The notes: a model not told the origin generated them from the letters alone. A stretch of DNA of 41,720 nucleotides from Bacteroidales bacterium (GCA_026985625.1 JALSQC010000160.1:1-41720), one strand, 5' to 3'. Counted from the first letter of the stretch, positions 8,178 to 39,817 are shown. A program made the numbers and translations.

Positions 8178-11100
8178 TTAAAAGTTATTTAAATCAATTG
8201 GACGTAATGCTCCAAACCATTTAAGAACTTTTTCGCCAACTCCGGGAACTTCTATATGTATTATATAAACTCCTCCTGCAATTGTAATTCCTGATTCGTT
8301 TGTTAAATTCCAGTCTTGCCAGGTTAACTCGTTGTCTTTTTTAAATGTTCTAATTAAACTACCGTTAACATTATAAATATTTATTGTACAAGTTTGAGGT
8401 AAGTTTGTAAATTTAATTTTCTTTTCTAATTGAGTTAATTCGTATTCGTTATATGCGTAATATGGATTTGGAACTACATTTATTTTCTCTAAAGCATCTT
8501 TTGCTACTGATACATCATTAGTTTCGGTTGCAATATCTTTTGTCGAGAATTTATATAGTGGCCAGTTATTGTTTTGAGGATTTGCTTTTGCTTGTTCTTT
8601 TATATTAATACAATATGGATTTGCCATACGTAATTTTATTTCTAAGTCTGATTTTATAAATCCATAAGGATCTGTTGTATCATAATTGGCATATTCTTGT
8701 TTTAAAATAGGTAAAGCAACCCACATAGCGTTTTTCCACACATCGCCTTTTGTAAAATCGTAAGGTCCCGATGTGTTTTCTAATTTATCGTGTAACCATT
8801 TTCCTCCGTCATACATAGGACATAGATTGTTTAATCCGTTAACTACAGTATGACCAAAAACATATATGTAATGTTTTCCTCCTGCATAGATGTCTCCGTT
8901 TGCTCCTCCTGTCCATTGATATAAATCGCTTACCATATCGCTTGTTGGATTCCATATCATATCTCTACCGTTTTCTGCAGGAAATCTTGAATCTTCGCCA
9001 AAAGCCATATTTAGTCTTTCTCCTGTTTCAATATCAATTGCATAACCCGGGAACCAACCCATTCCGTCTTCGGCAATATAGTTAGGGTCGTTAGGATTTG
9101 TACTTGCTCCACTTCCGGTTGTTGCATATACTTTTCCTGATTTGTCAACAGATGCGTGTCGTCGTAAACCAAATTTCCAAGCTCCTCCTTCAGATAATCC
9201 AACGGTTAAAGAGTTTGTTGATGTGTCAAATTCACACATTTCTATAACCGGACATCTTGTCCATTTTGATTTATCACTTGTAATAACAATATCAACGCTA
9301 CCTATTCTGTAAAATTTAGGTTGTATTCTGTCGTGTCGGTAATAGTATGCTGTTCCGTATTTTACATTAGGAGAACTTGATCCGTTATCGGTAGAGCATA
9401 CACAATAAGGTCCCCATTTTCCTTGAAGTATTCCTTCGAAAAATTCTAAGGAATCTACAAATTTACCTGACTGCATAGCATCATTATAACCGGGGCTTCC
9501 TCCTACTGTTCCACTACGTATCCAGTTTAATGGGGTTACAGATTCTTGGTCGGGAATAAAACTTAACCATGCATTATTATCGTCAGACCATGTCATTGTT
9601 GCGTTTATAAATCCGTTTTGATTCTTTTTAGAATTACCGGGATATGGTGATTGTTTTATTTCTACCGATAATCCCCATTCAGGTATTAATTGTTCGTTAT
9701 CGTAAGTTATCCAAGAGTTAGAATATACTGTATCGTTTCCTGAGTATAGTTTCCATTTTGCTTTGGTAATGTTTCCGTTTGATGATGTATATTGCACAGA
9801 ATCGAAAGCTAAAACAAAATCTTTGTCGGGAACATTTAATGGGTCTATAACTTTAACTTTTATAGGTCCATATCCGTTTTTGTAGGTTAATTCTTCGGCT
9901 GAATCGTTTTCTAATATTTCGTTAATGGTTTCTTGTGTTAAATCTAACTCGTTATATGAATTTCCATGACCTTCGATTTGAGTAATTTTAGGTCCATATC
10001 CATAAGTAGCAGGTAATGTTGTTCCGTTATTCTCCGGTTGATTTAAATGAGGAACAACATCATAAATTTTTATAGCTTGACCATCGCCGCCTTTTCTACT
10101 TGATTTATATGGCATAGATTGTCCATCGATATATTCTGGAGTTGTATTATCGTATTTTTTAAATAAATTGTATCCATAGGCAATAGCAACGTAATAGTAT
10201 GTTTTGTAATTAACTAAACGTTTGTCGCCTGTTGCAAATTTATCTTCGGTTAATACGAATGAATGTTTTATTCCTTTGTTCTCGCCATCAACTTTTAATA
10301 CTGGTTTTGAGGCTCCTAAATCTTCGTCGTATTCAAAGTTTATTAATCTTCCTATAGGATTTCCTGATTTGTCATAGTTTTCTATATCGCATTGATAAAC
10401 TAATCTTGCTTTATCTTCGTCTCCTATATCCGAAACAGAACAAGATGCATCTTTAAGTTGGAAAACTTGATAACCTTCGAATTTATAAAATTTATCGCAA
10501 GAAGGATTGTCGGTAGGACAAACAATAAATGGATCTTTTTCGGAGTAATCTTCGGGGTAATTTCTGTAGTTATTAGAGCCTTTTTTATTCCATATATGGA
10601 ATATTAATTGTTGATTCATTTCTATAATTGTTAATTCCGGAGCATCTGGTCCATCAACAACTTTAAAGCAATTTTCGAATAATTTTTGAGCTTTGTCGTC
10701 GGCTCTTTGCACTTCGGCAACAGAAGCCCATGCTCCTCCTGTTGAAGCTCTTGCCCAAACTATACCTTCAGTAATATCATTAACGGCTCCCGGTTCTAAT
10801 GTAAAAGGTCCTGCCGATTGTACAAATCGTTTATCTCGTGGAGGGTTATTATCGGTAATTTCTGACCATTGAGGTTGTGGATTTCCTGATGTTCCCCAGC
10901 CGCAAGGATCTGATACGTCGGGAAATAAAAAGTCGGTTTCTATAGAACTTGATAAATGTCCTGTTCCTCCATAGGTCATTCGTGTATTATCGGTCCAATA
11001 ACCTCGTAAATAATTATAATATTCAACTGCTGGCTCGGGGTCTCCTTGTCCTGTGGGTCCTCCGTTTATATAATAAACAAATCTACGCATTCCCCAACGT

Positions 11101-12326
11101 TCGTTATCTACTATTCCATCTTCGAAATTAAGACCGTTAATGCTACCTTCTTCGAGATTAGCACGGGCACAGTCTAAGTTTCCTGTAATTGTATCCCAGT
11201 TTGATTTATTATCTTTTCCGTCAGGGTCTTGATATGGTCCTTCGAAAAAGTCGATTCCTATGGCTGGTGGTTGTGGCCCGTAAGCCCAAACTTCGCCGTC
11301 GTCGTCGTCATCGCCATTATAACAATATCCTAAACCTCTATTAACGTCGCAACCAACATAATCGTCGGCAGCACTACCTAAATCGGCATCGGTATTAACG
11401 CCAAAATAAGTGTTAAATAATGTATATGTTGATCGGTTTATTAATTCGTAATGTCCAAATGTCATATTATTTAGTTCGTCGTTTGTTGAAAATGCAAAAG
11501 CTTGTGCTCTAATTTCCATACCAATTGCGGCTCCATTTGTTTCGGTATGTATATTACCTTTATCGTTATAAACCCACCATATTGTTTTATCACCGTATAA
11601 TTTTGGTTTTCGTAATTCTCTTGATGTTCCGCAAGGTTCTGAGTTATCTAAATCGTAAAACGGATAATCTCCTGCATCAGGATTATAATAATCGTCGCCG
11701 TCAACATCGACAAAAGGAGCTAAATGATAATCGTATCCTCTTGATACATCGCCGTGAGCAGGCCAATCGTAAATAATTTGAGGTATTTGATATCCTTGGA
11801 ACTCGGGATCGTTTAATACTGTAGTATTATTTGATAATAAAGCGGTTATATAAGTTCTGAATTTTGCTACTTCGGCTTTGGTTATTACCCAGAATTTATC
11901 GTAAGCTTCGCAAACATCAGGGGTTATACTTGCTCGTTCGGGACCTGATGTAATTAGTGGACCAGGCCAATAATCAACACCATTTTGTCTATATCGTATT
12001 GCGGCTAAACGCAGTTGTCCGTTTGCATCGGTTCCTCCAATCCATATAGAACCTAAGAAATTTGCCATTTTTCCGCTTCCTTTTGGAACCTCATAAGCCG
12101 GATTTCCTACAGATTGATCCCACCACATATCTCCTCCGTTCATTATCAATGCCTTTACATTGTTAAAATCTAAATAAATTGTAGCAGTTGCAGGAGAACA
12201 ACCGGCTGTTGCACTTTTTTCTTGTTTTGTAGATTTGCTTACGTAAATACTTTTACGAGCAAATATTGTAGTTGAGAAACTAAATATTAAAACAGCTAAT
12301 AAGATTTTTTTACTTATATTTTTCAT
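8178..12326 (-). CDS. very large secreted protein of unknown function with a T9SS-type C-terminal sorting domain
   Basis: 1382 aa. Signal peptide MKNISKKILLAVLIFSFSTTIFA. The C-terminal ~80 aa (TINIYNVNGSLIRTFKK...WNLTNESGITIAGGVYIIHIEVPGVGEKVLKW) fits the type-A T9SS CTD pattern. I recognise no other domain. Confidence 0.6.
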   Translation of the reverse strand: MKNISKKILLAVLIFSFSTTIFARKSIYVSKSTKQEKSATAGCSPATATIYLDFNNVKALIMNGGDMWWDQSVGNPAYEVPKGSGKMANFLGSIWIGGTDANGQLRLAAIRYRQNGVDYWPGPLITSGPERASITPDVCEAYDKFWVITKAEVAKFRTYITALLSNNTTVLNDPEFQGYQIPQIIYDWPAHGDVSRGYDYHLAPFVDVDGDDYYNPDAGDYPFYDLDNSEPCGTSRELRKPKLYGDKTIWWVYNDKGNIHTETNGAAIGMEIRAQAFAFSTNDELNNMTFGHYELINRSTYTLFNTYFGVNTDADLGSAADDYVGCDVNRGLGYCYNGDDDDDGEVWAYGPQPPAIGIDFFEGPYQDPDGKDNKSNWDTITGNLDCARANLEEGSINGLNFEDGIVDNERWGMRRFVYYINGGPTGQGDPEPAVEYYNYLRGYWTDNTRMTYGGTGHLSSSIETDFLFPDVSDPCGWGTSGNPQPQWSEITDNNPPRDKRFVQSAGPFTLEPGAVNDITEGIVWARASTGGAWASVAEVQRADDKAQKLFENCFKVVDGPDAPELTIIEMNQQLIFHIWNKKGSNNYRNYPEDYSEKDPFIVCPTDNPSCDKFYKFEGYQVFQLKDASCSVSDIGDEDKARLVYQCDIENYDKSGNPIGRLINFEYDEDLGASKPVLKVDGENKGIKHSFVLTEDKFATGDKRLVNYKTYYYVAIAYGYNLFKKYDNTTPEYIDGQSMPYKSSRKGGDGQAIKIYDVVPHLNQPENNGTTLPATYGYGPKITQIEGHGNSYNELDLTQETINEILENDSAEELTYKNGYGPIKVKVIDPLNVPDKDFVLAFDSVQYTSSNGNITKAKWKLYSGNDTVYSNSWITYDNEQLIPEWGLSVEIKQSPYPGNSKKNQNGFINATMTWSDDNNAWLSFIPDQESVTPLNWIRSGTVGGSPGYNDAMQSGKFVDSLEFFEGILQGKWGPYCVCSTDNGSSSPNVKYGTAYYYRHDRIQPKFYRIGSVDIVITSDKSKWTRCPVIEMCEFDTSTNSLTVGLSEGGAWKFGLRRHASVDKSGKVYATTGSGASTNPNDPNYIAEDGMGWFPGYAIDIETGERLNMAFGEDSRFPAENGRDMIWNPTSDMVSDLYQWTGGANGDIYAGGKHYIYVFGHTVVNGLNNLCPMYDGGKWLHDKLENTSGPYDFTKGDVWKNAMWVALPILKQEYANYDTTDPYGFIKSDLEIKLRMANPYCINIKEQAKANPQNNNWPLYKFSTKDIATETNDVSVAKDALEKINVVPNPYYAYNEYELTQLEKKIKFTNLPQTCTINIYNVNGSLIRTFKKDNELTWQDWNLTNESGITIAGGVYIIHIEVPGVGEKVLKWFGALRPIDLNNF

Positions 12327-12349
12327 AATTTATATATAATATTTCTTAA

Positions 12350-15300
12350 TTAAAAATTTAACGATATACCGAATTTGATTTGACGAGGCAGACTATAATT
12401 GTAAGGATTATTAACTAACATTAAGTAATAATTTCTATAGGCTTCTTCGTCGTATTGATTTTGTATTGATGTTTGGTTTTTAGCTAAATACAAATATCCG
12501 TCGTCATCGGGATTACCTGTTGTGCTATATACACTGATAACATTTTTTGTATTTAAAATATTTGAGATATCAAAATAAACATTTAAATACATTTTATCTT
12601 TTTTGTTTTCTCCTTTTTTATCTAATGCAATATCTCTATCGATTCTCATATTTATAGTAGTTCGAGATGGTTTTCTTGAACCGTTAACATTTCCAATTAC
12701 GGTTCCGTTGTTAGGATCTTTTTTGGTGTAAGGAGAACCTGTTCCAAAATTAAGCACAAAATTAACACCTGTATTTTGGAATATATCTTTGCCAAACCAT
12801 TTTGGTCCGTTGTATGCTTGACCACTTGCATATCTGTAATCTGTAGTTATAACAATTGCATGGCGTTGGTCGTAATTAAGAGGTAATGTTGTTCGCAAGT
12901 TAGGTTGTCCTGATTGTATCATTGATTTTTGTGTTTTAGCATCGGAACCTGTTCCGTTTGCAAATTGCAATGTATAACTTGCACGTAACGATATGTTTCC
13001 TGTTCTTCGTAAATCGTAAGACATTGTAAATCCTTTAACTGTTCCAAAGTCGATGTTTGAATATGTCATATAATTTACAGGATATGCTCCATAAACCATT
13101 TGAACTTGAACCATGTCTTGCATTCTTCGATAAAATGCCGAGAGTTTTATTGATGATGAGTTACTTACTTTTTGTTGGAATCCTAATTCGTAATCTATAG
13201 TTTTTTCGGGTTTTAGGTTAGGATTGTTAACTTGGTTTGTTCCTCGTGTTTGTATAAATAAATAGTCCATAGGGTTTAATCGGTTTCCTGTAGTTGGTCG
13301 TTTTGTTAAAATATCGTAGTGTGCAAAAAACAAAGCTACGTCAGAAATAGGAAAAGAAAAGGATATACGTGGCATTGCGTTTATTTGTGGTTTATAATCT
13401 TCGAAAGCATCGGCAGTTAATCCTGCATCGGCATCTACTAAATAAGGTGCAATTCCTGTTGCTGCAGCTATTTCGCTTGGGTCGTCAACTAATGTTCCTT
13501 GTGCGTTATACCATTTTGCTGTTGACGGTTCGGTTCCTGTTCTGTATCCTTTTATTGATGTTGGATTTTTTATATCATCAACATAAACTACATAATTATC
13601 ACCCATTGCCGAGTTTAAATCGTTTGCCGATATTGATGTTTTGCCGTTTTTAATATCTCCAACAGTATATGCTTGTCCAAAAATGTATGGATCTTTTAAA
13701 ACTTTTTGGTTTGCATCGAATCTGTCTACACGAAGTCCTACGTTAAATACTAAATCGTTAAATGCAAATTTATCTTGTATGTATGCTGCTGAGTAATTAG
13801 GTTCGAAAGGAGCAACTTCTCTTTTATAAAAACCATTTTCGTCTTTTGCATTAAAAAAGTCGTCAAGAGTAGGTTTGTTTGTTAATTTTTTACCATGATG
13901 GTCGTAACCGTAATAGGAAACAAATTGATTTCCGTCGTTTAATAATTCGTCGGCACTAAAATAATCAATTGATAATTCAGATGGGTCGTAAGAGTCTATA
14001 TCTACCCAATCTAATCCGTCAACAGCTAATCCAAGATGTTTTCTCATATTAATATCGAATAATCGTTGTGCTGTTGCATTATATAATCTGTCATAATAAA
14101 CTGTATCTTGAAAAACTCCATCGCGATAAACATAATGAGGATTTTTTACATCTAACTCTAAAATATGAGAGTTCATATTATTACGTGCAAGAGTCCACAA
14201 ACCTACCGGTGATACTCCATAATATCTATCGTTACGTTGTTCAAATTCGAAACCTATTGATATTTCGTGATCTTTAATGTCGGCAGAACCACTTGCCGAT
14301 ATACGGAATTGATTTGCATCGGATTTTGAATATCCGTTGTATTGTGTGCCGGGAGCATTGTATAGTCCGTAAATTGCATCGGGTTGATCGCCGTTTAGTA
14401 AGCCTCCTCCGTTTTGAATTAAAACATCGTTAGAGTAATGAAAACTAAACGGATCGTATAAACTGTAATATCTTTCGGTATATTTTGTTAAAACCGGATT
14501 TATTGTTGTTGGTTCAAATGATACGTTTAAGTCTCTAAATCCGTCTTGCATATAAACACCGTTAGGGAACATTTGCATTGTGTCGGTAATAGAGAAAGAT
14601 CGTGTTTTTAATGTTTTAAATTTACCAACATAACCGTAGTCGAATAAATTATCTTTATGAGAATCGTCTTGCATTATGCTGTTTGTTTTAGAATAATCTA
14701 CTTGTATTCGATAAAATACGTTTTTAAGTATTGATGCTTTTGCTTGTTCTTCGTCTTGGTCTTCGGAACCGAATTTTTGAATTAATCGAGCATATACTCT
14801 CCAGTTTGAATATATTTGTTGTGGGTTGTTATCGGAATTAAACATTTGATTTTCGGCTCCACGGTTAAATTTATTTTTTCTACTAAAATAATATAAGTGT
14901 CGATTTCGGTAATCCATGCTACCTCCAATTGTAATATTTACATTTTTTGAAGGTTTTATATCGACTTTGCCTGCAATTTCGGCTTGATATTTTGATATAT
15001 TTTGTTTTGCTTTTACATTTTTAAAATTTGTTTTGTCAAGGTAGTTTGCATTATATATTGTTACATTTCCATCGGGAGATGGTTTAATAGGGTCGTTTAT
15101 TATTGAGTTTAGTGCATCGTCGGTTGCAACCCAGTTTCCTATTGCTGAAGGATAGTCGTCTTTAACATAATTTAAACTTGTTGATAAAAAGAAACCTGCT
15201 TTAACATCTTTCTTAACTTTAGATGTATCGTTAGGATCAACGGTTTTTTTAACCCACAAAGGAGCAGAATACATAAATTCTGCAAGGTTGTAATGATATC

Positions 15301-16027
15301 CGTCTAAAAATTCGGAAGTAACGTATTCGGCAGAGCCAAAAGCTTTACGTGTTGGTCCTTTTGTTGTAATGCTGATAATACCTCCTGTTGCATCGCCATA
15401 TTTTGCGGCAAGTCCACCTGTTACTACGGTAACTTGTTCTATTGCTGATTTTGGTAATGAGCTTGAGCCTCGAACTTTTACTCCGTCGATGTAATATACG
15501 GTTGCTTCGGAACGAGCACCACGTATGCTTCCGACTTCGCCATTTTCGGAATAAACTCCACCAACAGTTGTTGCTACCGAAGCTGCTGAACGTCCCGGCA
15601 TTTTTGCAATATCTTCTGATGTTACAGTTCCTCCTGTTTCGGTTTGGTCTTTACTAATTAAAGGCACTTTGTAATCTTTAATAACAACTTCCTCGAGTTT
15701 GCTTACAGTTGATATCATTTTAAAGTTCTGGAAGGTTATTTTTCCTGCTATAATTTTTACTCCATTTAATTGTATGGTTTTATATCCCATATATGTGGCT
15801 TTTACTGTATATGTTCCTGCAGGAATTGGTTTAATGGTATATTTACCATCGAAATCGGTCATTGCTCCATTTACAAGACTTCCGTTTTGATAAATTGATA
15901 CGTTTCCGAATGCAATTGGTTCTTTATTTCCTCCGTCGTAAAGTTTTCCCTGTAAAGTTCCTGATTGTGCATAAATACCTTGTGTAAAAGCTATTACGAA
16001 AACAAAAAACAATAATTTTTTTAACAT
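12350..16027 (-). CDS. TonB-dependent-receptor-like outer-membrane protein with N-terminal carboxypeptidase-regulatory-like domain
   Basis: 1225 aa with a signal peptide. It has a CarboxypepD_reg-like beta-sandwich (GTLQGKLYD...GTYTVKATYMGYKT) and plug motifs (IRGARSEATVYYIDGVKV, VTVVTGGLAAKYGDATGGIISITTK). The long barrel ends in the OMP signature KFGISLNF. Confidence 0.85.
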   Translation of the reverse strand: MLKKLLFFVFVIAFTQGIYAQSGTLQGKLYDGGNKEPIAFGNVSIYQNGSLVNGAMTDFDGKYTIKPIPAGTYTVKATYMGYKTIQLNGVKIIAGKITFQNFKMISTVSKLEEVVIKDYKVPLISKDQTETGGTVTSEDIAKMPGRSAASVATTVGGVYSENGEVGSIRGARSEATVYYIDGVKVRGSSSLPKSAIEQVTVVTGGLAAKYGDATGGIISITTKGPTRKAFGSAEYVTSEFLDGYHYNLAEFMYSAPLWVKKTVDPNDTSKVKKDVKAGFFLSTSLNYVKDDYPSAIGNWVATDDALNSIINDPIKPSPDGNVTIYNANYLDKTNFKNVKAKQNISKYQAEIAGKVDIKPSKNVNITIGGSMDYRNRHLYYFSRKNKFNRGAENQMFNSDNNPQQIYSNWRVYARLIQKFGSEDQDEEQAKASILKNVFYRIQVDYSKTNSIMQDDSHKDNLFDYGYVGKFKTLKTRSFSITDTMQMFPNGVYMQDGFRDLNVSFEPTTINPVLTKYTERYYSLYDPFSFHYSNDVLIQNGGGLLNGDQPDAIYGLYNAPGTQYNGYSKSDANQFRISASGSADIKDHEISIGFEFEQRNDRYYGVSPVGLWTLARNNMNSHILELDVKNPHYVYRDGVFQDTVYYDRLYNATAQRLFDINMRKHLGLAVDGLDWVDIDSYDPSELSIDYFSADELLNDGNQFVSYYGYDHHGKKLTNKPTLDDFFNAKDENGFYKREVAPFEPNYSAAYIQDKFAFNDLVFNVGLRVDRFDANQKVLKDPYIFGQAYTVGDIKNGKTSISANDLNSAMGDNYVVYVDDIKNPTSIKGYRTGTEPSTAKWYNAQGTLVDDPSEIAAATGIAPYLVDADAGLTADAFEDYKPQINAMPRISFSFPISDVALFFAHYDILTKRPTTGNRLNPMDYLFIQTRGTNQVNNPNLKPEKTIDYELGFQQKVSNSSSIKLSAFYRRMQDMVQVQMVYGAYPVNYMTYSNIDFGTVKGFTMSYDLRRTGNISLRASYTLQFANGTGSDAKTQKSMIQSGQPNLRTTLPLNYDQRHAIVITTDYRYASGQAYNGPKWFGKDIFQNTGVNFVLNFGTGSPYTKKDPNNGTVIGNVNGSRKPSRTTINMRIDRDIALDKKGENKKDKMYLNVYFDISNILNTKNVISVYSTTGNPDDDGYLYLAKNQTSIQNQYDEEAYRNYYLMLVNNPYNYSLPRQIKFGISLNF

Positions 16028-31462: not shown

Positions 31463-31891
31463 TTAAACGCGGTTATTAAAAATTTTTGATAGATAATAGT
31501 TTTCTAAGTCTCGCATTTTCTTTGTTTCTTGCTTTGTTTTATCGTTTTGTCCTGTAAGGTGTAAGATTCCATGGATTAAAACTCTGTAAAATTCGTGTAA
31601 ATATTTTTCTTTAAAAATTTTTGAGTTTTCTTTTATTCTGTCAATACTAATATAAATATCGGCATTTACGGTTTTTAAATCGGTATAATCAAATGTAATT
31701 ATGTCGGTATAATAATCGTGATTAAGATATTGATTGTTTATTTCTATAATTAAATCGTCGGAACAAAAAATATAGTTTATTTCTCCTATTAAAAAACCTC
31801 TTGATGTAATTGTGTCTGAAATCCACTTTTTTGTTTTTTTACGCAAGAATGCAGGAGGATTTCTGTCTTCGGAAAAAAAATTAATTGCCAT
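31463..31891 (-). CDS. ybeY: rRNA maturation endoribonuclease YbeY
   Basis: 142 aa. Zinc motif HGILHLTGQND and preceding NADIYISIDRI, typical of YbeY. Confidence 0.88.
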   Translation of the reverse strand: MAINFFSEDRNPPAFLRKKTKKWISDTITSRGFLIGEINYIFCSDDLIIEINNQYLNHDYYTDIITFDYTDLKTVNADIYISIDRIKENSKIFKEKYLHEFYRVLIHGILHLTGQNDKTKQETKKMRDLENYYLSKIFNNRV

Positions 31892-32285
31892 TTAATTTAA
31901 ATTTAATTTCTACCGCAGAGCCGTTATTTATAAAATTTAGTTCGTCGGATAAATGTTTTATTAAGAAAATTCCTCTTCCGTCGGGTTTTTCAATATTTTC
32001 GGGTAATGTTGGGTCGGGTATGTTTTTATAGTCAAAACCGTTGCCTTGGTCTTTTATGTAAAATTTTAATGTATTTGAATCAATATTGCATTCGAGACTG
32101 ATAAATTTGTTGTTGTCTAAATTATTACCATGTATTATTGCGTTGTTTACTGCTTCGGTTACCGAAACTAAAACGTTTCCAAATAAATCGTCTTTTATAG
32201 ATAGTTTTTTTGCTATTTCTTCTATAAATTTTTCTACAAGATTAATATTTTCAATATCAGAATTAAATTCTAACCGAGTTTTCAT
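31881..32285 (-). CDS. HATPase_c-type ATP-binding protein (RsbW/SpoIIAB-like anti-sigma serine kinase fold)
   Basis: 134 aa. N-box VTEAVNNAIIHGN, G1 box IKDQGNGF and G2 box GRGIFLIKHL. Its 3' end overlaps the ybeY start by 11 nt. Confidence 0.72.
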   Translation of the reverse strand: MKTRLEFNSDIENINLVEKFIEEIAKKLSIKDDLFGNVLVSVTEAVNNAIIHGNNLDNNKFISLECNIDSNTLKFYIKDQGNGFDYKNIPDPTLPENIEKPDGRGIFLIKHLSDELNFINNGSAVEIKFKLNGN

Positions 32286-32363
32286 TATAATTTAAGTGTT
32301 TATAAATAGTGTATTTTCTTTATACTAAAAAATTTAAATTGTGTTACATTTTTTTATAAAAAA

Positions 32364-32385
32364 AGCAGAATTTTAAAATTCTGCT
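32364..32385 (-). terminator. strong intrinsic terminator ending the psr-yeeE-rhodanese operon
   Basis: Perfect 22-nt palindrome agcagaattttaaaattctgct lying 23 nt past the stop at 32408. On the minus-strand RNA it is followed directly by a run of seven U. Confidence 0.75.
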
Positions 32386-32407
32386 TAATATATTTTATGT
32401 GGATTTT

Positions 32408-32467
32408 TTAACCACAACCTCCTGTAACTTCTTTTTTCTTGCGTTTTATAAGTTTTTTCTTTGGTTT
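32408..32467 (-). repeat. copy 1 of a 60-nt direct repeat encoding the KPKKKLIKRKKKEVTGGCG* tail
   Basis: ttaaccacaacctcctgtaacttcttttttcttgcgttttataagttttttctttggttt. 58/60 identical to copy 2 and 57/60 to copy 3. Confidence 0.95.
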
Positions 32468-33556
32468 TGGCGAAGAGTTGTTAGTATTTGTTGCTGTATT
32501 TATTTTTTTATTGCTTGGTTTTTCTCCTTTAATTAATGGAAAGTCGTGTAATTTTTCGGCTGGTTTAAATCCGTGCCAATGTTCTCGTGATACTAAAACA
32601 TCGTGCATAAAACTATTTGCTCCAAAACCAAGGGTAAATGCTTTATATCCTAATAATCTTAGATATGCTATTGTAAAAGCTGCGTTTTGTCCTGTAAAAC
32701 AATATACTAATATGTTTTTATCAGTTGGTAATGTGTTTAAGAATGTTGTGTCGCTTAAGTCGTGTTTTGGAGTATATTGTATTGCTCCGGGTATATGGCC
32801 TTTTAAATATTTATCTTTTGGCCAATAGTTTATAATATAAAAATTACTGTCGGCAAAAGCTTTATCGGCTTTAACTATTAATTTATAGAATGGTATGTTT
32901 AATGCTTCTTTTGCTCTTTCTTTAAGGATTTCTGCTCCGCATTGTTTTCCGGTTTTTATTTCGGGAAGGTTATATTTTCTTCCTTTGGGATTATTTTTTG
33001 TTTCTAATGCATTTGCATATTTATTTGATATGTTTTTTGACCAATCGTCAAAAGTTCTGTTCCACGAACCCATTCCGTATTTCATAGCATATACATTATT
33101 ATATCCTAGTAATCGCAATATTGATGTTGCGTAACTTGATGATTGTCCGGAATAACAAACTAAAACTATTTTATCGTATATTGCAGGTACTATATTTTTT
33201 TCGAAATAGTTGATGAGATTGTTCATTTTTACATTAACGGCTCCGTTTATATGTCCTTCTACATAATCGTCGTGTAATCGTGTATCTATAACAAAGTAAT
33301 CTGATAGATTTTCGTTTACATCTTCGGCAGAAACCATATTAGGAACTCCTAATGTGTTTATATAATCACCGGTATTTTTTATATACTCCATTAATATCTG
33401 GTTCTCGGGTAATGTTATGGAGTCTTCGTTGATTGTTTTTACATTTAATCCGGGATTATAATAATGTTCGCAACTACTTGTAATAATTGCAAATGATATA
33501 AATACAAATAAAATTTTTATAATTCTTTTCATTTTTGTTATTTTATAAATTAACAA
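32408..33556 (-). CDS. exported tandem-rhodanese lipoprotein with polybasic-GGCG C-terminal tail
   Basis: Lipoprotein signal (...FAIITSSC). Two rhodanese domains each carry an active-site-loop Cys (VLVCYSGQSSS and LVYCFTGQNAA). Ends PKPKKKLIKRKKKEVTGGCG. An alternative start at 33532 (MKRIIKIL) is at least as likely. Confidence 0.85.
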   Translation of the reverse strand: MLIYKITKMKRIIKILFVFISFAIITSSCEHYYNPGLNVKTINEDSITLPENQILMEYIKNTGDYINTLGVPNMVSAEDVNENLSDYFVIDTRLHDDYVEGHINGAVNVKMNNLINYFEKNIVPAIYDKIVLVCYSGQSSSYATSILRLLGYNNVYAMKYGMGSWNRTFDDWSKNISNKYANALETKNNPKGRKYNLPEIKTGKQCGAEILKERAKEALNIPFYKLIVKADKAFADSNFYIINYWPKDKYLKGHIPGAIQYTPKHDLSDTTFLNTLPTDKNILVYCFTGQNAAFTIAYLRLLGYKAFTLGFGANSFMHDVLVSREHWHGFKPAEKLHDFPLIKGEKPSNKKINTATNTNNSSPKPKKKLIKRKKKEVTGGCG

Positions 33557-33576
33557 ATTATTTTTTATTTTTTAAA

Positions 33577-33636
33577 TTATCCACAACCTCCTGTAACTTC
33601 TTTTTTCTTACGTTTTATAAGTTTTTTCTTTGGTTT
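33577..33636 (-). repeat. copy 2 of the 60-nt tail repeat
   Basis: ttatccacaacctcctgtaacttcttttttcttacgttttataagttttttctttggttt. 59/60 identical to copy 3. Confidence 0.95.
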
Positions 33637-34215
33637 AGATGATGTGTTATTATCGGTAGGAACTGTTCCTCCTGCTGTTTCGGCTACAACTTTCGCATAA
33701 TCGTATTTTGGTTTTTCGTCGTTATAAATTCCAGTTTTTATGCCGAAATCGTTTATCATATATTTATTTATAAAATCGAAACCACCTAAAGCTACTTTAA
33801 TATTTTTATAATTAAGTTGTTTTAGCATTAGATATACATCAATGGCTTGTGTTGCATTGTAACCATATATTACATTAATTTTTTTATCTTGATTTAAGAT
33901 GTCAAAATTTTCGTTATTAAAAATATCTTTTGCCGGCACATTAATTGCTGAATCTACATGATTTACTATAAAGTCATGTGGGGTTCTTAAATCTATAAAT
34001 CTGTATGTTTTCATTTTTTCTGGACAATAAAAAATATTTGCCACTTTTTCTACAGGTAATATATCTGTTTTATTAATGTATGTTTTTAATGTTTGTTCCG
34101 GAGATAAAACATATTTTTTACTATTGTCAACTCCACAACTAATCATTAAAACTATTACCGATAGTATTAATATTTTATTTATTATTTTCATTATTTTTAA
34201 TTTTTTATTATACAA
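33577..34215 (-). CDS. exported single-rhodanese-fold lipoprotein lacking the catalytic Cys, with polybasic-GGCG tail
   Basis: Lipoprotein signal (...VLMISC). Rhodanese fold (FIDLRTPHDFIVNHVDSAINVP), but the active-site loop reads VIYGYNATQA with no Cys. Ends SKPKKKLIKRKKKEVTGGCG. Alternative start at 34191. Confidence 0.8.
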   Translation of the reverse strand: MYNKKLKIMKIINKILILSVIVLMISCGVDNSKKYVLSPEQTLKTYINKTDILPVEKVANIFYCPEKMKTYRFIDLRTPHDFIVNHVDSAINVPAKDIFNNENFDILNQDKKINVIYGYNATQAIDVYLMLKQLNYKNIKVALGGFDFINKYMINDFGIKTGIYNDEKPKYDYAKVVAETAGGTVPTDNNTSSKPKKKLIKRKKKEVTGGCG

Positions 34216-34236
34216 TAATATTTAGATTATAAATAA

Positions 34237-34296
34237 TTATCCACAGCCTCCTGTAACTTCTTTTTTCTTACGTTTTATAAGTTTTTTCTTTGGTTT
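34237..34296 (-). repeat. copy 3 of the 60-nt tail repeat
   Basis: ttatccacagcctcctgtaacttcttttttcttacgttttataagttttttctttggttt. Confidence 0.95.
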
Positions 34297-34857
34297 ACTT
34301 GCTTGTTCGTTTCCAGATGACACTGTGCTTCCTCCTCCAAAATAGAAACTTGCTCCTTTTCTAAATTCGTATAAGTCTTCTTGTTTTCTATCCCATACAA
34401 TGGGGTTGTATTTTGGCCGTAATATGTTGTCAACCCAAGCATTTAATCCTCCGTCCATAATATAAATATTTTTATATCCTAAACGTGTTAAAATCATCCA
34501 TGCTACATCAGAGTTTGAGCTTCCGTTAGAAAAAATTACCGTGTTATATACATCTTGGTCAAAATAATCTAAGTTTTCCTTTTTTAATAAATCTTTTAAA
34601 GGAATATTAATTGCTCCTTTTAGTGTAAATTTGTTGTATTCGTCGGCAGTTCTTATGTCTATTAGTTGCAACGATGGGTCTTTTGATATTATTGCTTTTG
34701 CAACATCTTCGGTAGTATAAAATCTTGTTCTTTGTATTAATTTTTGCTGTAGTTCGTGAGGCGAAACTTTTGTGTTGTCATTATTGTTGTTTGACATTAA
34801 CAACCATATGCCTGTAATAAGCATTAACCCAATAATAAATTTATCTAGATTTTTCAT
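34237..34857 (-). CDS. membrane-anchored or exported rhodanese-fold protein lacking the catalytic Cys, with polybasic-GGCG tail
   Basis: N-terminal hydrophobic anchor FIIGLMLITGIWLLM. Rhodanese fold (LIDIRTADEYNKFTLKGAINIP), but the active-site loop reads VIFSNGSSNS. The only Cys in the whole protein is in the terminal GGCG. Confidence 0.8.
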   Translation of the reverse strand: MKNLDKFIIGLMLITGIWLLMSNNNNDNTKVSPHELQQKLIQRTRFYTTEDVAKAIISKDPSLQLIDIRTADEYNKFTLKGAINIPLKDLLKKENLDYFDQDVYNTVIFSNGSSNSDVAWMILTRLGYKNIYIMDGGLNAWVDNILRPKYNPIVWDRKQEDLYEFRKGASFYFGGGSTVSSGNEQASKPKKKLIKRKKKEVTGGCG

Positions 34858-34869
34858 TTGTTTATAATT

Positions 34870-35490
34870 TTATAGTCCGAGTTCTTCTATTTTTTCAACA
34901 GGTTTTTTTTCGTTTACTCTTTTTTGTATTTTATCAACAACTATAAAAGCAATTATTGCAATTATGAGAACGATAAAAATAAATAGTTCGTTAGACATTC
35001 CTAATTTTTCGGCAATATTTGCTTTTCCTAAACCTCCTTTTGAGCGTAAATTTTGAAATAGGGATTCGTATGTGAAAGCATATCCAAATATACCTATAAA
35101 TACACCTCCAACAAATGCTATTCCGTCAATTTTTCCTGTTGATGCCGCACAAATACTTGTACCGGGGCAAAATCCTCCGAGAATAAATCCTAATCCCATT
35201 ACTATACCTGCTATTAAAGTAGGTATCCAAAATGTTTTTGGATAAAATGTTAGGTTAATATCTATTAATCCGTAGCTGTCCATTAAAAATAATCCTATAG
35301 CACCTGTTAAAGCAGCTGTAAAGAATACTTTTAGAACAACAAAATCATAACCATAAAAAACACCTGCTAATTTTCTGGTATTAGTAAATCCTCCTGCTTC
35401 TAATCCTATACCAAAACCTATACCTATAAATATAGCAATAAATAGGTTTAAAGGATCTGAAATTAATTCTTGTGGAAATAATGGTCCCAT
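34870..35490 (-). CDS. YeeE/YedE-family sulfur-compound transporter, half-size subunit
   Basis: 206 aa polytopic membrane protein with the conserved LGGFCPGTSICAAS motif of the YeeE/YedE family. Confidence 0.82.
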   Translation of the reverse strand: MGPLFPQELISDPLNLFIAIFIGIGFGIGLEAGGFTNTRKLAGVFYGYDFVVLKVFFTAALTGAIGLFLMDSYGLIDINLTFYPKTFWIPTLIAGIVMGLGFILGGFCPGTSICAASTGKIDGIAFVGGVFIGIFGYAFTYESLFQNLRSKGGLGKANIAEKLGMSNELFIFIVLIIAIIAFIVVDKIQKRVNEKKPVEKIEELGL

Positions 35491-35504: not shown

Positions 35505-36023
35505 TTAAATCCATAATTTTCTAAAAAAATATGCAAATGCATATCCTCCGCCAAATACTGCGGCTAATCCAATGTATCCCGATAAGGCGTTAACCGCCAT
35601 TCCGGACATAACTAATCCTGAGGTACAACCTCTCCCTAATTGAGAGCCTATTCCCCATAAAATACCTCCTATAATAGCAGCTATTATTCTGGTTTTGTTT
35701 GTAATTTTTGGCGATTTTCCTACTTTAAAATTAAGTCTACCAAAGTATGCTGCCGATAAAATTGCACCAAAAATAACTCCTATTATTTCGAATATTAACC
35801 AAGAGTTTAGTGGCGATTTTCCTTCGGATACTAATGGAGAGCAGTAAGCCGAATTAAGGGCATAATTATGATTTACACCATTAATTGTAGCAACTACTAC
35901 TTTTTTAAATGCTCCACTTCCGCCTAAACCTTCTCCCGAAAAATAATATGCGGCTATTAGCATTAAGCCTATTATAAAACCGGCTAAATACGGATTCATA
36001 TATTTATTACTTCTATCTTTCAT
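35505..36023 (-). CDS. YeeE/YedE-family sulfur-compound transporter, half-size subunit
   Basis: 172 aa polytopic membrane protein with the conserved GSQLGRGCTSGLVMSG motif. Confidence 0.82.
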   Translation of the reverse strand: MKDRSNKYMNPYLAGFIIGLMLIAAYYFSGEGLGGSGAFKKVVVATINGVNHNYALNSAYCSPLVSEGKSPLNSWLIFEIIGVIFGAILSAAYFGRLNFKVGKSPKITNKTRIIAAIIGGILWGIGSQLGRGCTSGLVMSGMAVNALSGYIGLAAVFGGGYAFAYFFRKLWI

Positions 36024-36036
36024 AATTTTTATAATT

Positions 36037-37032
36037 TTAGTATAAATATCTTGTCAATTGACCTGCCTCAACCATAATAAATCTAAATACCAAGCCTCCT
36101 AATAGTATTAAAAAGGCCGGAACAGCAATAGGTATTTTGTAGCCAAATAATTCCATAAGTTCTAAAAGAGCAGGTAATACTAATCCTATTCCTACAAAAA
36201 ATCCCCAGAATACAGCTGTAAATTCTCCTCCAAGGAATAATGCGGCGGCTTCTTGTTGAACTTCGGAACTTGCTAAATATCCCATAAACATGTGTATTAT
36301 AAAAAATAGCTCTATTGCTACTAGCATTAAATCTATTTTACTAAATGATATTTTCTCGAAATGGTCGCGAGCCATCCACATAATAACTGCTACGCCTGTT
36401 GATACTCCAGATACTAAGAAAAGTGGTCCTAATATAGATGTATTCCATAATGGTCTTGCATTAAATGCTGATAGTAATATTCCTGTATAAACTCCTAATA
36501 TTATTGATAATAATAATAGTATCCAAGCCATAATTTTTTGGTATTTTCTTGCTATTTTAATTATCCATTTTATTATGTGACATTTACCAATAATAATTTT
36601 ATCAACCCATTTTAAAAATTTTGTTATTATTTTACATTTACCATCAAAATAATCTATTATATCGTCAAGGTATAGTAATGGCCAAATGATTGATAACGGG
36701 GTTACTATACCTAGCGTCCAAGCTCCCCAAGACATTGGCGATTCAAATCGTATTGTTGTGTATAATTGCCAAAAGAATTGGGTGTGTTTTAAATCTAAAA
36801 GCAAGGCTAATAGTCCTATAATAATAGCAATTGGAGCAATAATAGGGGATATTTTAACTGCAACATTATATTTATCGGTTTTACCTGTTATAAAAAAGTA
36901 TGTTGCAAAAAATATTAATCCGGCAGCAAGCCCTCCTAAAAATAAATACAATGGTATTTGCCAATGCCATATATGCAAAACCGGGTCTATGTTTGGTATG
37001 TTTCTACCGCTTACAAAAAGTTCTTCTTTCAT
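36037..37032 (-). CDS. nrfD: NrfD/PsrC-family molybdoenzyme membrane-anchor (quinol-oxidising) subunit
   Basis: 331 aa with ~8 hydrophobic helices. N-terminal WHWQIPLYLFLGGLAAGL is typical of NrfD/PsrC. Sits immediately downstream of the FeS subunit. Confidence 0.85.
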   Translation of the reverse strand: MKEELFVSGRNIPNIDPVLHIWHWQIPLYLFLGGLAAGLIFFATYFFITGKTDKYNVAVKISPIIAPIAIIIGLLALLLDLKHTQFFWQLYTTIRFESPMSWGAWTLGIVTPLSIIWPLLYLDDIIDYFDGKCKIITKFLKWVDKIIIGKCHIIKWIIKIARKYQKIMAWILLLLSIILGVYTGILLSAFNARPLWNTSILGPLFLVSGVSTGVAVIMWMARDHFEKISFSKIDLMLVAIELFFIIHMFMGYLASSEVQQEAAALFLGGEFTAVFWGFFVGIGLVLPALLELMELFGYKIPIAVPAFLILLGGLVFRFIMVEAGQLTRYLY

Positions 37033-37043
37033 TATTCTTTATT

Positions 37044-37577
37044 TTATATTAAAAAATAAACTTGTGGTTTTGTTCCTGCTTCAGGAGCATTAACTTTCCA
37101 TTTTCTTGATTTCAATAATTTTGATACCGGAGAATTTGGATCGTCTAAATCGCCAAAAGTTAAACATCTGGTAGGACAAACCGATACACATGCCGTGTCT
37201 TGTCCTTTTGCCACACGATGGTCGCAGAATGTACATTTATCAACATATCCTTCTGGGTGGAAATATCTTGCTTCGTATGGACATGCTTGAATACATGCTC
37301 CACAGCCAATACATTCGTCGTGAGTAACTTTAACTATTCCTCCCTCGATTATATGGCTAGCTCCTGTAGGACATGTTCTTACACATGGAGCGTCGCCACA
37401 ATGGTTGCATCTTTCGGATCGAATTTCGAGATGTAGTTCCGGATATGTTCCGTCTACATTTTCTACAATCCAATCTCTACAGTAACCATGAGGGACATTA
37501 TTTTCTGTTTGACAAGCAACTACACAGTCGCTACATCCGACACATTTTTTTGTGTCCATTGCCATTGCGTATCTCAT
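37044..37577 (-). CDS. 4Fe-4S ferredoxin-type electron-transfer subunit (PsrB/PhsB-like)
   Basis: Four Cys clusters: CVGCSDCVVAC, CNHCGDAPCVRTC, CIGCGACIQAC and CTFCDHR...CVSVC. Its start overlaps the catalytic subunit's stop by 4 nt (37574-37577). Confidence 0.9.
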   Translation of the reverse strand: MRYAMAMDTKKCVGCSDCVVACQTENNVPHGYCRDWIVENVDGTYPELHLEIRSERCNHCGDAPCVRTCPTGASHIIEGGIVKVTHDECIGCGACIQACPYEARYFHPEGYVDKCTFCDHRVAKGQDTACVSVCPTRCLTFGDLDDPNSPVSKLLKSRKWKVNAPEAGTKPQVYFLI

Positions 37578-39817
37578 GCTTTAACCTCCTCGTTATTTGG
37601 GTTATCAGTTAATATTTCAACAAAATTTGATCTCATTCCTGTGCCTCCTGTAACATCGTCTATTAATACTTTTGTTATTAATTCCCAGTCGGCAGCTCCT
37701 TTTCCGTAAGCTGTTTTCATTTGTTTAGCTTTATTTCCAAAACCATGAGGTAAGTAGACTGAATCGAATCTTATTCTTTCGGTAATTCTAACTTTAACAG
37801 GATATGAAGAAACAACTCCGTCTTGATTTCTTAACCACACTTCTTGTCCCGGTTCTAAATATAATAATTTTGCTACTTTTGGGTTTACCCATAAATGATT
37901 TTCGCTTCGTAAATCGTTTAAAAAACGGTTATTTATAGTTCGTCCGAATGTATGCATTGGAACTCTACCGTAAATAAGTCTATAAAAACCGTCCTCGGGT
38001 TGTGGATGTTCTTTAAATACAGGCATAGGGTCGTATCCCATCGCATCTAAGTCGGTAGAGTATAATTCTATTTTTCCGGTATTTGTGTTAAAGAAGTATT
38101 CTTCTCCGTCTTCTAAAAACAAGGCTTCTTCTCTATCGAAAGTTTTAACTCCTATTTTTTTCATTTCTTCTAACGATGTTCCTACTTGTTTTAGTTGCCA
38201 ATCGAGAACTTCTTCTAAATCTTTCCAAGGATAATATTTTTCTAATCCTAATCTTAATCCTATTTCTCTTGCAATCCACCATCCCGGTTTTGATTCGTAC
38301 ATAGGTTTAACGGCCGGCATTCTTAATGCAATTTGCGGTTCTTTATGACGTGTTGTTCTTAAATAATCGTATCGTTCTAAATAGGTGCATTCGGGTAAAA
38401 CAACATCGGCATATCCTGTAATTTCTGATGGCATAGTATCTACAACAACTATAAATTCCATATTTTGGATAGCTTTTTTTGTTTTTTCTTGATCAGGTAT
38501 GGATTGTATTAAGTTTGTTGCGGTAATATACCATGCTTTTATTTTGTGTTTTAATTTGGTATCGGGTAATGATGCGTCTATTAATATATTTGTAACTCCT
38601 GTAAAAGCTCCTTTGTATTTATCTTTTGTAATATCTTTCCATGTCCATTTTGGTTCGGGGTAATGTGGTGTAGGATAATGTGGCACATGTATTTTCTCAG
38701 GAAAATAATATCCTCCTTTTTTTCCCCAAGAACCAAGTAGTGCGTTTAATATTGCTATTGCTCTTGTGCGTTGAGTATCGTCGCCATACCAAGCAGTATG
38801 TCGTCCAGGATGAATTGCTACTGCAGGCGAAGCATTTGCCATTTCTCTTGCAGTTTTTCTAATTAAATCGGGAGCTATATCTGTTTTGGTAAAAGCCCAT
38901 TCGGGTGTATATTTTTTTACATGATTTTTTAAATCGTCAAAGCCATAGGTGTATTGTTCTACATATTTTTTGTCGTATAAATCTTCATAAATTAGAACGT
39001 GCATCCATGCTAAAAGTAAAGCTAAATCTGTTGCAGGTTTAATTGGTAACCAATATTTTGATTTTGATGCAGCAGTTGAGAAACGAGGGTCAACAGTAAT
39101 AACTGTCATTCCTCTGTCGATACCTATTGACATATCTTGCACTATACCATTGTGCATGTTTTCTCCAATGTGACTACCTATTAATACTAAACATTTAGAG
39201 TTTCTAAGGTCGGTTGGTTCCGGAGAACCTATTCCTGCTCCGTATGTATTTATAAATCCTGCTTCTCGTGCTCCTAAACATTGAGCAATTGCTGGTTCTG
39301 CCGTGTTGTCGGAACCAAAAGATTTAAATAAATGTTCAAAGTGATGTGCTGTTGTTCCGTGGTCTAATAAGGCAATGCTCTCATAACCATATTTTTCGCC
39401 AACTTCTTTGGTTTTTTTTGCTACGTAATCTAAAGCTTCGTCCCAAGACACTTCTTTAAAAGTTTGGCTACCTGGTGCTCCTACTCGCATTAAAGGTTTT
39501 TTTAATCGGTCTTTATCGTATAACATTCCTACTCCTCCGGTACCTCTTGGGCATAATCTGCCGGTTGAATGTAAATCGCTATCGTTTCCTATTATTTTTT
39601 GAACTTTGCCATCTGCACCTTTATAAGCAAAAGCTGCACAGTTCCAAAAACAGACTTCGCAAATTGTTGGAGTTCGTTCTGCTTTTGATTCATCTATAGG
39701 AGTTTTTTCTTTTGGCAAAAAACTTGGAACCCAGTCCAAAACAGGATTTGCCAATGCTAAACCTCCTACGCCAATAGCCGAAATTTTAATAAAATCTCTT
39801 CTTGTTTTCTTTTTCAT
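37574..39817 (-). CDS. Tat-exported molybdopterin (bis-MGD) oxidoreductase catalytic subunit, polysulfide/thiosulfate-reductase-like (PsrA/PhsA-like)
   Basis: Twin-arginine signal KKKTRRDFIKISAIGVGGLALA. N-terminal FS0 cluster motif CEVCFWNC...CPRG. 747 aa. The substrate cannot be assigned by eye. Confidence 0.88.
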   Translation of the reverse strand: MKKKTRRDFIKISAIGVGGLALANPVLDWVPSFLPKEKTPIDESKAERTPTICEVCFWNCAAFAYKGADGKVQKIIGNDSDLHSTGRLCPRGTGGVGMLYDKDRLKKPLMRVGAPGSQTFKEVSWDEALDYVAKKTKEVGEKYGYESIALLDHGTTAHHFEHLFKSFGSDNTAEPAIAQCLGAREAGFINTYGAGIGSPEPTDLRNSKCLVLIGSHIGENMHNGIVQDMSIGIDRGMTVITVDPRFSTAASKSKYWLPIKPATDLALLLAWMHVLIYEDLYDKKYVEQYTYGFDDLKNHVKKYTPEWAFTKTDIAPDLIRKTAREMANASPAVAIHPGRHTAWYGDDTQRTRAIAILNALLGSWGKKGGYYFPEKIHVPHYPTPHYPEPKWTWKDITKDKYKGAFTGVTNILIDASLPDTKLKHKIKAWYITATNLIQSIPDQEKTKKAIQNMEFIVVVDTMPSEITGYADVVLPECTYLERYDYLRTTRHKEPQIALRMPAVKPMYESKPGWWIAREIGLRLGLEKYYPWKDLEEVLDWQLKQVGTSLEEMKKIGVKTFDREEALFLEDGEEYFFNTNTGKIELYSTDLDAMGYDPMPVFKEHPQPEDGFYRLIYGRVPMHTFGRTINNRFLNDLRSENHLWVNPKVAKLLYLEPGQEVWLRNQDGVVSSYPVKVRITERIRFDSVYLPHGFGNKAKQMKTAYGKGAADWELITKVLIDDVTGGTGMRSNFVEILTDNPNNEEVKA

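Follow-up and report, generated by a model that had tools for sequence, protein, structure and literature searches.

A common G-G-C tail on three exported rhodanese-fold proteins of a Bacteroidota psr-yeeE operon: a candidate swinging arm for periplasmic sulfur transfer

Why do three neighbouring proteins, which differ from each other over most of their length, end in one and the same peptide? The question is raised by a 41,720-nucleotide stretch of DNA from a Bacteroidales bacterium (GCA_026985625.1 JALSQC010000160.1:1-41720), the whole of which is called the window here. It contains three consecutive, tandem genes for rhodanese-fold proteins, rhdA, rhdB and rhdC, and the C-terminus of all three products is KPKKKLIKRKKKEVTGGCG-stop. 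We think that this tail is probably, though far from certainly, a flexible swinging arm that bears a carrier cysteine on a rhodanese scaffold, in the manner of SoxY or DsrC, and that serves the reductase and/or the YeeE channel encoded beside it. The three genes and their tail-coding segments are as follows.

34237-34857, minus strand: rhdA, 206 residues; membrane-anchored, one rhodanese domain, Cys-less loop, disordered linker, tail
33577-34215, minus strand: rhdB, 212 residues; lipoprotein, one rhodanese domain, Cys-less loop, linker, tail
32408-33556, minus strand: rhdC, 382 residues; lipoprotein, two rhodanese domains with loop Cys, linker, tail
34240..34296, minus strand: RhdA tail KPKKKLIKRKKKEVTGGCG, Cys codon 34243-34245
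33580..33636, minus strand: RhdB tail KPKKKLIKRKKKEVTGGCG, Cys codon 33583-33585
32411..32467, minus strand: RhdC tail KPKKKLIKRKKKEVTGGCG, Cys codon 32414-32416

For rhdB and rhdC, the ATG codons at 34191 and 33532 are alternative and likely starts, which give 204 and 374 residues, respectively. Outside the tail, the pairwise identity of the three proteins is just 25-30%. The 57 nucleotides that code for the tail differ by 1-3 positions between the copies in the window, all of them synonymous (54-56 of the 57 are identical); compared to the rest of the proteins, the identity of the tails is therefore far beyond chance. A search of the window against Rfam for an RNA element that could account for the nucleotide conservation of the tail gave no family match. 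The linkers ahead of the tails are unrelated low-complexity stretches, NTATNTNNSSP, TAGGTVPTDNNTSS and GGGSTVSSGNEQAS.

Pfam assigns the rhodanese domain PF00581 to all three proteins; RhdC contains two (E=6e-27 over two stretches), RhdA and RhdB contain one each (5e-8 and 5e-17). The active-site loops and the lipobox residues are listed below.

33137-33157, minus strand: RhdC loop 1, CYSGQSS, whose Cys is C134
32681-32701, minus strand: RhdC loop 2, CFTGQNA, whose Cys is C286
34510-34533, minus strand: RhdA loop, FSNGSSNS, Cys-less, at the active-site-loop position
33847-33867, minus strand: RhdB loop, YGYNATQ, Cys-less, at the active-site-loop position
34135-34137, minus strand: RhdB lipobox Cys
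33470-33472, minus strand: RhdC lipobox Cys

A catalytic rhodanese carries a Cys at the start of its active-site loop, and among the three proteins only RhdC does so; the position is occupied by Ser in RhdA (SNGS, conserved) and by Gly/Tyr in RhdB. To judge from these residues, RhdC retains two catalytic rhodanese loops, and RhdA and RhdB have lost theirs. RhdA is exported and anchored by an N-terminal helix. An earlier note on this stretch, made from its sequence, had described the same 19-residue C-terminus on three consecutive genes, the differing low-complexity linkers, the two rhodanese domains with loop Cys of the 382-residue protein, the Cys-less loops of the 212- and 206-residue proteins, the export signals on all three, and the one Cys in the entire 206-residue protein, its penultimate residue; all these descriptions were confirmed. 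The note had also taken the tail Cys as the sole plausible reactive Cys in two of the proteins. This is strictly so for RhdA and does not hold for RhdB, which possesses, besides the tail Cys, the lipobox Cys and a non-conserved Cys63.

Structures were predicted with AlphaFold. The RhdA model, made by AlphaFold2 with family alignments, contains an N-terminal helix and one confident rhodanese domain (residues 33-174), followed by residues 176-206, for which the predicted local distance difference test (pLDDT) score is below 50. Like RhdA, RhdC has a confident body, of two domains, and model residues 345-374 are at a pLDDT of ~40. The last ~30 residues are thus predicted to be disordered; we estimate that an arm of ~30 residues could, when fully extended, span up to roughly 100 Å. 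As judged by Foldseek, the top matches of the Rhd models are ordinary single- and double-domain rhodaneses.

The tail is carried by hundreds of homologues from metagenome-assembled genomes (MAGs) of Bacteroidota and Chlorobiota/Ignavibacteria; the operon also occurs in assigned or cultivable relatives, namely in a MAG assigned to Draconibacterium orientale, in Lutibacter and in Lentimicrobium. Across more than 400 homologues, G-G-C lies at the extreme C-terminus. The RhdA search returned more than 350 homologues of ~207 residues, and G-G-C plus 0-1 residue ends 119 of the 120 matches listed, the exception being one frameshifted sequence. These 120 tails mostly follow [KR][RH]KKKEV[ETSA]GGC[GSED], and in most of them the tail Cys is the sole Cys of the protein, as in the window. 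The RhdC search returned 516 homologues, among which G-G-C plus 0-1 residue is terminal in 117 of the 120 listed; G-G-C was found in every tailed RhdB sequence as well.

The family alignments place the conserved cysteines differently. The tail Cys is the only conserved one in the RhdA family; the RhdB family conserves the lipobox Cys (100% of orthologues) and the tail Cys, and the RhdC family conserves the lipobox Cys (97%), the loop residues C134 (94%) and C286 (86%), and the tail Cys. In RhdA, the loop that has no Cys is itself at least 90% conserved at S110-N111-G112; the domain is therefore under constraint and not decaying.

Is the tail specific to these proteins? A degenerate DNA pattern for KKKEVxGGC was run over 185,579 species, each represented by one genome, and gave 66 loci. 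All matches at protein C-termini are RhdA, RhdB or RhdC, from MAGs of Flavobacteriales, Saprospiraceae, Bacteroidales and Chlorobiota; the other matches are internal or lie in tiny open reading frames (ORFs) of unrelated taxa. The same pattern, with TGA also permitted at the Cys codon, gave at least 119 loci in metagenomes. At least 110 C-terminal matches belong to the three Rhd families, and at least 10 further matches are tiny or unrelated ORFs, or fragments at contig edges whose length does not permit classification. Among the matches listed, no rhodanese host has a selenocysteine (TGA) tail; none of the 26 TGA matches has an upstream rhodanese ORF, and they are chance hits. Two protein searches, both weakly informative, gave the same picture: a tail profile matched 5 of 1.84 billion proteins, all Rhd proteins or fragments, and a word-indexed search of 5.8 billion proteins (query of at least 40 residues) gave 12 matches, all C-terminal fragments of RhdA or RhdC. 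No model covers the tail in Pfam and NCBIfam scans, which reported only rhodanese-type models, and a 33-residue tail query had zero matches among PDB sequences. The earlier note had made its idea depend on the tail being kept in orthologous operons and being absent from unrelated proteins. The tail is indeed conserved in orthologous operons, and its classifiable C-terminal matches are confined to the three Rhd families.

In one metagenome protein of 146 residues (P0242), an unrelated N-terminal fragment is joined to the last ~45 residues of an RhdA, tail included; an assembly error or a wrong gene call is the probable cause.

In the window, the three genes close a cluster of eight tightly packed genes on the same strand, psrA-psrB-psrC-yeeE1-yeeE2-rhdA-rhdB-rhdC. 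The other members and the putative end of the operon are as follows.

37574..39817, minus strand: psrA, molybdopterin catalytic subunit with twin-arginine translocation (Tat) signal TRRDFIK; Pfam Molybdopterin, Molydop_binding and Fe4S4
37044..37577, minus strand: psrB, 4Fe-4S subunit; Fer4_11 and related domains; NCBIfam NrfC/DsrO/TtrB-like
36037..37032, minus strand: psrC, NrfD-type membrane quinol subunit; PF03916 NrfD, E=9e-45
35505..36023, minus strand: yeeE1, PF04143; half of a split YeeE/TsuA-like sulfur channel; motif GRGCTSG
34870..35490, minus strand: yeeE2, PF04143; other half of the split YeeE channel; motif GGFCPGT
32363..32386, minus strand: terminator-like hairpin with T-run, 22 nucleotides past the rhdC stop; likely the end of the operon

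PsrA matches the Psr of Thermus thermophilus (2VPW) over its full length (E=5.6e-202), and PsrABC has the make-up of a polysulfide/thiosulfate reductase, that is, a Tat-exported subunit with molybdenum bis(pyranopterin guanine dinucleotide), a 4Fe-4S subunit and an NrfD membrane subunit. YeeE1 aligns with residues 234-326 of Spirochaeta thermophila YeeE (8J4C/6LEO), including the pore GGC motif.

Gene order was counted over 121 loci. PsrC is immediately before YeeE1 in 38/40 cases, YeeE2 directly upstream of RhdA in 59/59, RhdB next after RhdA in 61/63, and RhdC next after RhdB in 59/63. The order of the eight genes hardly varies, with the YeeE-Rhd part as the core of the operon. The compared loci carry L-numbers as labels, and L024, L029 and L189 are informative exceptions to this order. 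L024 (4950-6715) and L029 (3363-5096) contain only a yeeE1-yeeE2-rhdA unit, the tail of which ends in KKKEVEGGC-stop; no psr, rhdB or rhdC is nearby, and the unit lies next to genes for a PNP_UDP_1 phosphorylase and for a hybrid histidine kinase. In L189 (2273-8092), one octaheme protein of the Cytochrome_cB family and one Ni_hydr_CYTB cytochrome b take the place of PsrABC upstream of yeeE1. YeeE2 and RhdA are fused in L189 into a single protein of 411 residues, in which the last YeeE2 helix is followed by a Lys/Arg-rich loop and then by the transmembrane helix of RhdA. Because of the positive-inside rule applied to this loop, the rhodanese domain and the arm are predicted to lie in the periplasm beside the channel.

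Several minor features of the compared loci were also recorded. Multihaem cytochromes like that of L189 adjoin the module in L058 and L188, and Crp/cNMP-binding regulators flank it in L188 and L189. L192 (932-1918) has an extra exported rhodanese of 328 residues upstream of the operon, beside a Crp-family regulator; it lacks the GGC tail and ends in GYTYE. In L190 (4184-6539), two tandem RhdC-like two-domain rhodaneses have GGC tails that end in QQESSGGCG and EGSSGGGCS, and the 4 kb upstream contain no psr or yeeE genes. tatA and tatC are located just downstream of the operon in L187 (5645-8317).

The tail could instead be a C-terminal signal by which the protein is processed, lipidated or attached. 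The enzyme that cuts off the tail or modifies its Cys, for example to provide a second membrane anchor, would then be encoded in another part of the genome. If all three proteins depended on one such enzyme, their tails would be kept identical within a genome, and G-G-C resembles positions -2 to +1 of a lipobox. In addition, eukaryotic membrane anchors combine a polybasic stretch with a lipidated Cys, which the polybasic run and near-terminal Cys of the tail recall. However, all named prokaryotic C-terminal sorting signals have a hydrophobic segment, which the tail lacks, and neither Pfam nor NCBIfam recognises it. The flanks of the 121 loci contain no further conserved gene, and no conserved protease or transferase was found beside the operon. 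RhdA, RhdB and RhdC are already anchored at their N-termini, the tail is limited to three sulfur-transferase families of one operon, and G-G-C persists where the basic run is lost. We regard a processing signal as quite unlikely.

Named candidates of this kind were also compared with the tail individually. PEP-CTERM, GlyGly-CTERM, MYXO-CTERM and the C-terminal domain of the type IX secretion system are defined by a signature motif ahead of a hydrophobic helix and basic cluster, or by a beta-sandwich of ~80 residues, and each has a dedicated sorting enzyme. They were rejected, as the tail has no hydrophobic stretch, stops 0-1 residue after the Cys, gives no NCBIfam match and has no neighbouring enzyme. 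A CaaX/polybasic prenylation signal, in which exactly three residues follow the Cys, was rejected too; at most one residue follows the Cys in any of the sequences.

The tails vary between lineages, and they do so in concert. More distant members end in KKKPKKEEEGGC, KKKKGGGGGC, PVQRNTGGGNVGGCE or ETIQVEGGC. All follow one grammar, in which a disordered linker, usually a basic cluster, and a few small or acidic residues precede G-G-C and 0-1 further residue. The three tails of L187 all end in PPPVVPVQRNTGGGNVGGCE-stop and have no Lys run, and those of L189 are all acidic (QVEGGC or EVAGGC). Since whole lineages have non-basic or acidic tails, the polybasic patch is common but not essential, and the role which the earlier note had given to the Lys/Arg patch is not supported as worded.

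To quantify the concerted change, 27 non-redundant loci with three tails were compared. Paralogues from the same genome are 70% identical over the 10 residues that precede the near-invariant core, whereas orthologues from different genomes are 46% identical there. The linker just ahead shows the ordinary pattern (19% for same-genome paralogues versus 27% for orthologues between genomes), so only in the tail is the pattern reversed. In 9 of the 27 loci, the 12 residues ahead of GGC are the same in all three tails, and in 10 more they are the same in two of the three.

Such likeness could also be a functionless by-product of gene conversion between tandem paralogues. The near-identical tail DNA of the window suggests recent conversion there, and the RhdA and RhdB tails of L187 have 18 of 20 codons in common. 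Different from what a by-product would give, G-G-C and the tail are conserved over hundreds of sequences and several orders, and paralogue tails usually differ at synonymous sites while their amino acids are kept. At sites with the same residue, codon identity is 0.64 within genomes versus 0.53 between genomes. RhdA, RhdB and RhdC of L187 share the same 20 residues, unlike those of other genomes, and the RhdC tail differs from the RhdA and RhdB tails by 10 synonymous and 0 nonsynonymous codons. Because synonymous differences occur without amino-acid change, selection, and not only gene conversion, has acted on the tails. A functionless by-product is hardly credible, and pure gene conversion as the whole explanation is effectively refuted by the synonymous versus nonsynonymous pattern. 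The simplest reading would be that new tail variants are spread by conversion and then kept identical by selection, as one shared partner site would impose.

The codons of the KKK before EV (32432-32440, 33601-33609 and 34261-34269 in the window) are AAG AAA AAA in 134 of the 196 distinct tails of the compared loci; AAA AAA AAA and AAA AAA AAG occur in 0 of the 196, although AAA makes up 78% of the nearby Lys codons. Slippery stretches of 8 or more A thus appear to be avoided.

How might such arms work? The core idea of the earlier note, a flexible tethered thiol arm acting with the rhodanese folds, Psr and/or YeeE, is supported by the conservation of G-G-C, the lack of any other conserved Cys in RhdA, the predicted disorder, the specificity of the tail and the gene order; we infer the loading of the arm Cys with sulfur and the identity of the docking partner. 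In the scheme that we favour, RhdA is anchored in the inner membrane beside the split YeeE channel, to which it is sometimes fused, and RhdB and RhdC are lipoproteins. The loop Cys of RhdC may take sulfane sulfur from thiosulfate, polysulfide or elemental sulfur, and the arm Cys of RhdA, RhdB and RhdC would then receive it as a persulfide, polysulfide or thiosulfonate adduct. The ~30-residue arms could bring the sulfur to the substrate funnel of the periplasmic reductase, usually the Tat-exported PsrABC and occasionally an octaheme cytochrome; they may also move sulfur to or from the periplasmic mouth of YeeE. The Lys run common in the clade of the window probably aids docking or anion handling and would be dispensable. 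The arm sequences would be alike within a genome, and would change jointly between genomes, because all three must fit the same partner site.

Several observations weigh against this swinging-arm scheme. The Lys-rich segment is missing in some lineages. In many Bacteroidales, the polybasic GGC tail of RhdB is replaced by a conserved acidic tail with one Cys, NPNKVIKDFDEECPDLN-stop (KDFDEECPDLN at its end), so three identical arms are not obligatory. RhdA and RhdC keep the basic GGC tail in loci of this type (the acidic-tail RhdB orthologues are in L009, L017, L022, L023, L026, L031, L045, L047, L051 and L052), and the acidic RhdB tail could be an oppositely charged partner arm. The within-genome likeness of the tails could partly come from tandem gene conversion and not from a partner constraint, given the 54-56 of 57 identical nucleotides in the window. 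Finally, the likeness to SoxY described below is a motif of 6-7 residues and cannot establish homology.

A different use of the same Cys was also considered. As a redox or resolving residue, it would form disulfides with the RhdC loop Cys or with other tails, and would release sulfide from persulfides or hold a complex together. Besides its tail Cys, RhdC indeed conserves a Cys in each of its two loops, the ~30-residue arms could extend to the loops of the same or of another protein, and the mobile C-terminal redox tail of thioredoxin reductase offers a precedent. However, strong selection maintains the tail on RhdA and RhdB, whose loops offer no Cys for it to resolve, and RhdA occurs with YeeE in the absence of RhdC in L024 and L029. 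A redox role overlaps with the chemistry of a carrier and is not cleanly separable from it; as the main function of the tail, we consider it unlikely.

For the carrier arm, the closest named analogues by mechanism, which the earlier note had not mentioned, would be the arms of SoxY and DsrC, placed in the niche of Sud. The Rhd proteins themselves are, by their domains, rhodanese-domain proteins and not members of the SoxY, DsrC, TusA or Sud families. In SoxY, the intermediates are bound to the Cys of a swinging arm with the sequence VTIGGC (PMC5336275, PMC11237559). Like the Rhd proteins, SoxY is periplasmic, presents its carrier Cys, surrounded by Gly as G-G-C-G, at the end of a flexible C-terminal segment, and offers one arm to several partner enzymes; the local sequences, (K)VTIGGCGG in SoxY and KEVTGGCG in Rhd, are alike. 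The scaffolds are different, with an Ig-like fold in SoxY and a rhodanese fold in Rhd, and Pfam and NCBIfam scans of the Rhd proteins gave no SoxY domain (Pfam SoxY / TIGR04488). SoxY works with SoxZ, SoxAX and SoxB, whereas the rhd operon contains no SoxZ, SoxAX or SoxB genes. The Rhd arm follows a low-complexity linker of ~15 residues and usually a Lys-rich run; its partner would be a reductase (Psr or octaheme cytochrome) and/or YeeE, and there are three carriers per operon, with co-evolving arms.

The sulfur carried by DsrC is bound to its penultimate residue, a Cys, and the flexible arm on which this Cys sits reaches into DsrAB (PMC3397948). As in DsrC/TusE, the penultimate Cys of the window tails is preceded by Gly and is on a flexible arm; the Cys of DsrC is persulfurated, and its arm inserts into a cavity of the partner. 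Different from the Rhd proteins, DsrC is cytoplasmic, has another fold and a second Cys 10 residues upstream, and its partner is DsrAB/DsrMK. Thioredoxin reductase, with its GCUG end, likewise has a mobile C-terminal tail with a reactive chalcogen beside Gly. Its tail, however, is a redox-active Cys-Sec pair in a flavoenzyme, and the matches listed in our metagenome scan included no TGA tail on a rhodanese host.

As far as one entry in the reference list of PMC6378623 goes, the Sud rhodanese of Wolinella succinogenes supplies polysulfide sulfur to Psr via a single Cys. Like Sud, the Rhd proteins are exported, of rhodanese fold and tied to PsrABC; Sud is thought to hand over sulfane sulfur and is encoded with psr in some species. 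With their export signals and their linkage to Tat-exported PsrABC, the Rhd proteins are periplasmic rhodaneses tied to Psr. The single Cys of Sud is located in the active-site loop; in RhdA and RhdB, the loop is Cys-less and the Cys is at the tip of the C-terminal arm instead. Homology to Sud is not supported, as no Sud chain is among the listed PDB sequence or fold matches and RhdA and RhdB have no loop Cys. A published proposal for Desulfurivibrio (PMC12142623) includes rhodanese lipoproteins that are exported and belong to a psr operon, together with a role of YeeE as a sulfur transferase in the membrane.

The YeeE/TsuA-YeeD/TsuB system resembles the locus in that a YeeE-type channel is paired with a small single-Cys partner, and the pore Cys motif is conserved in the YeeE of the window. 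Different from that system, the window channel is split into two genes, and its partner would be a periplasmic armed rhodanese and not a cytoplasmic protein of TusA fold; the rhd operon contains no TusA-like gene. In L189, the rhodanese is fused to YeeE2 through an extra transmembrane helix.

In the open-access literature, Pfam and NCBIfam, we found no paper or family model that describes a G-G-C arm on rhodaneses. We propose, more tentatively than the arm itself, that G-G-C-armed rhodaneses may form an unrecognised class of protein-tethered periplasmic sulfur carriers in Bacteroidota/Ignavibacteria. In that case, the true substrate of PsrABC or the octaheme cytochrome and of YeeE might be a protein-bound persulfide or polysulfide and not a free ion, and the arms and their docking site might co-evolve as lock and key. 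This would bear on two long-standing questions, namely how polysulfide/sulfur reductases obtain an unstable and poorly soluble substrate, and what is exchanged at the outer face of YeeE-type channels. If the arms are carriers, the swinging-arm principle, which SoxY represents in sulfur oxidation and DsrC in the reduction of sulfite in the cytoplasm, extends to the reduction of sulfur in the periplasm. A rhodanese domain followed by a disordered linker and a G-G-C stop would then be a simple marker by which the pathway could be annotated in MAGs from sulfidic habitats, and the operon would be a natural example, amenable to study, of co-evolution between three paralogous peptides and one partner.

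Two features of the window outside the operon were noted. Just past the operon terminator, positions 31463-32285 (minus strand) contain a HATPase_c_2 gene, similar to anti-sigma-factor kinases, and ybeY, a neighbourhood that is not kept in other loci. Positions 8178-16027 (minus strand) contain two very long ORFs, of 1382 and 1225 residues, with a G+C content above that of the rest of the window.

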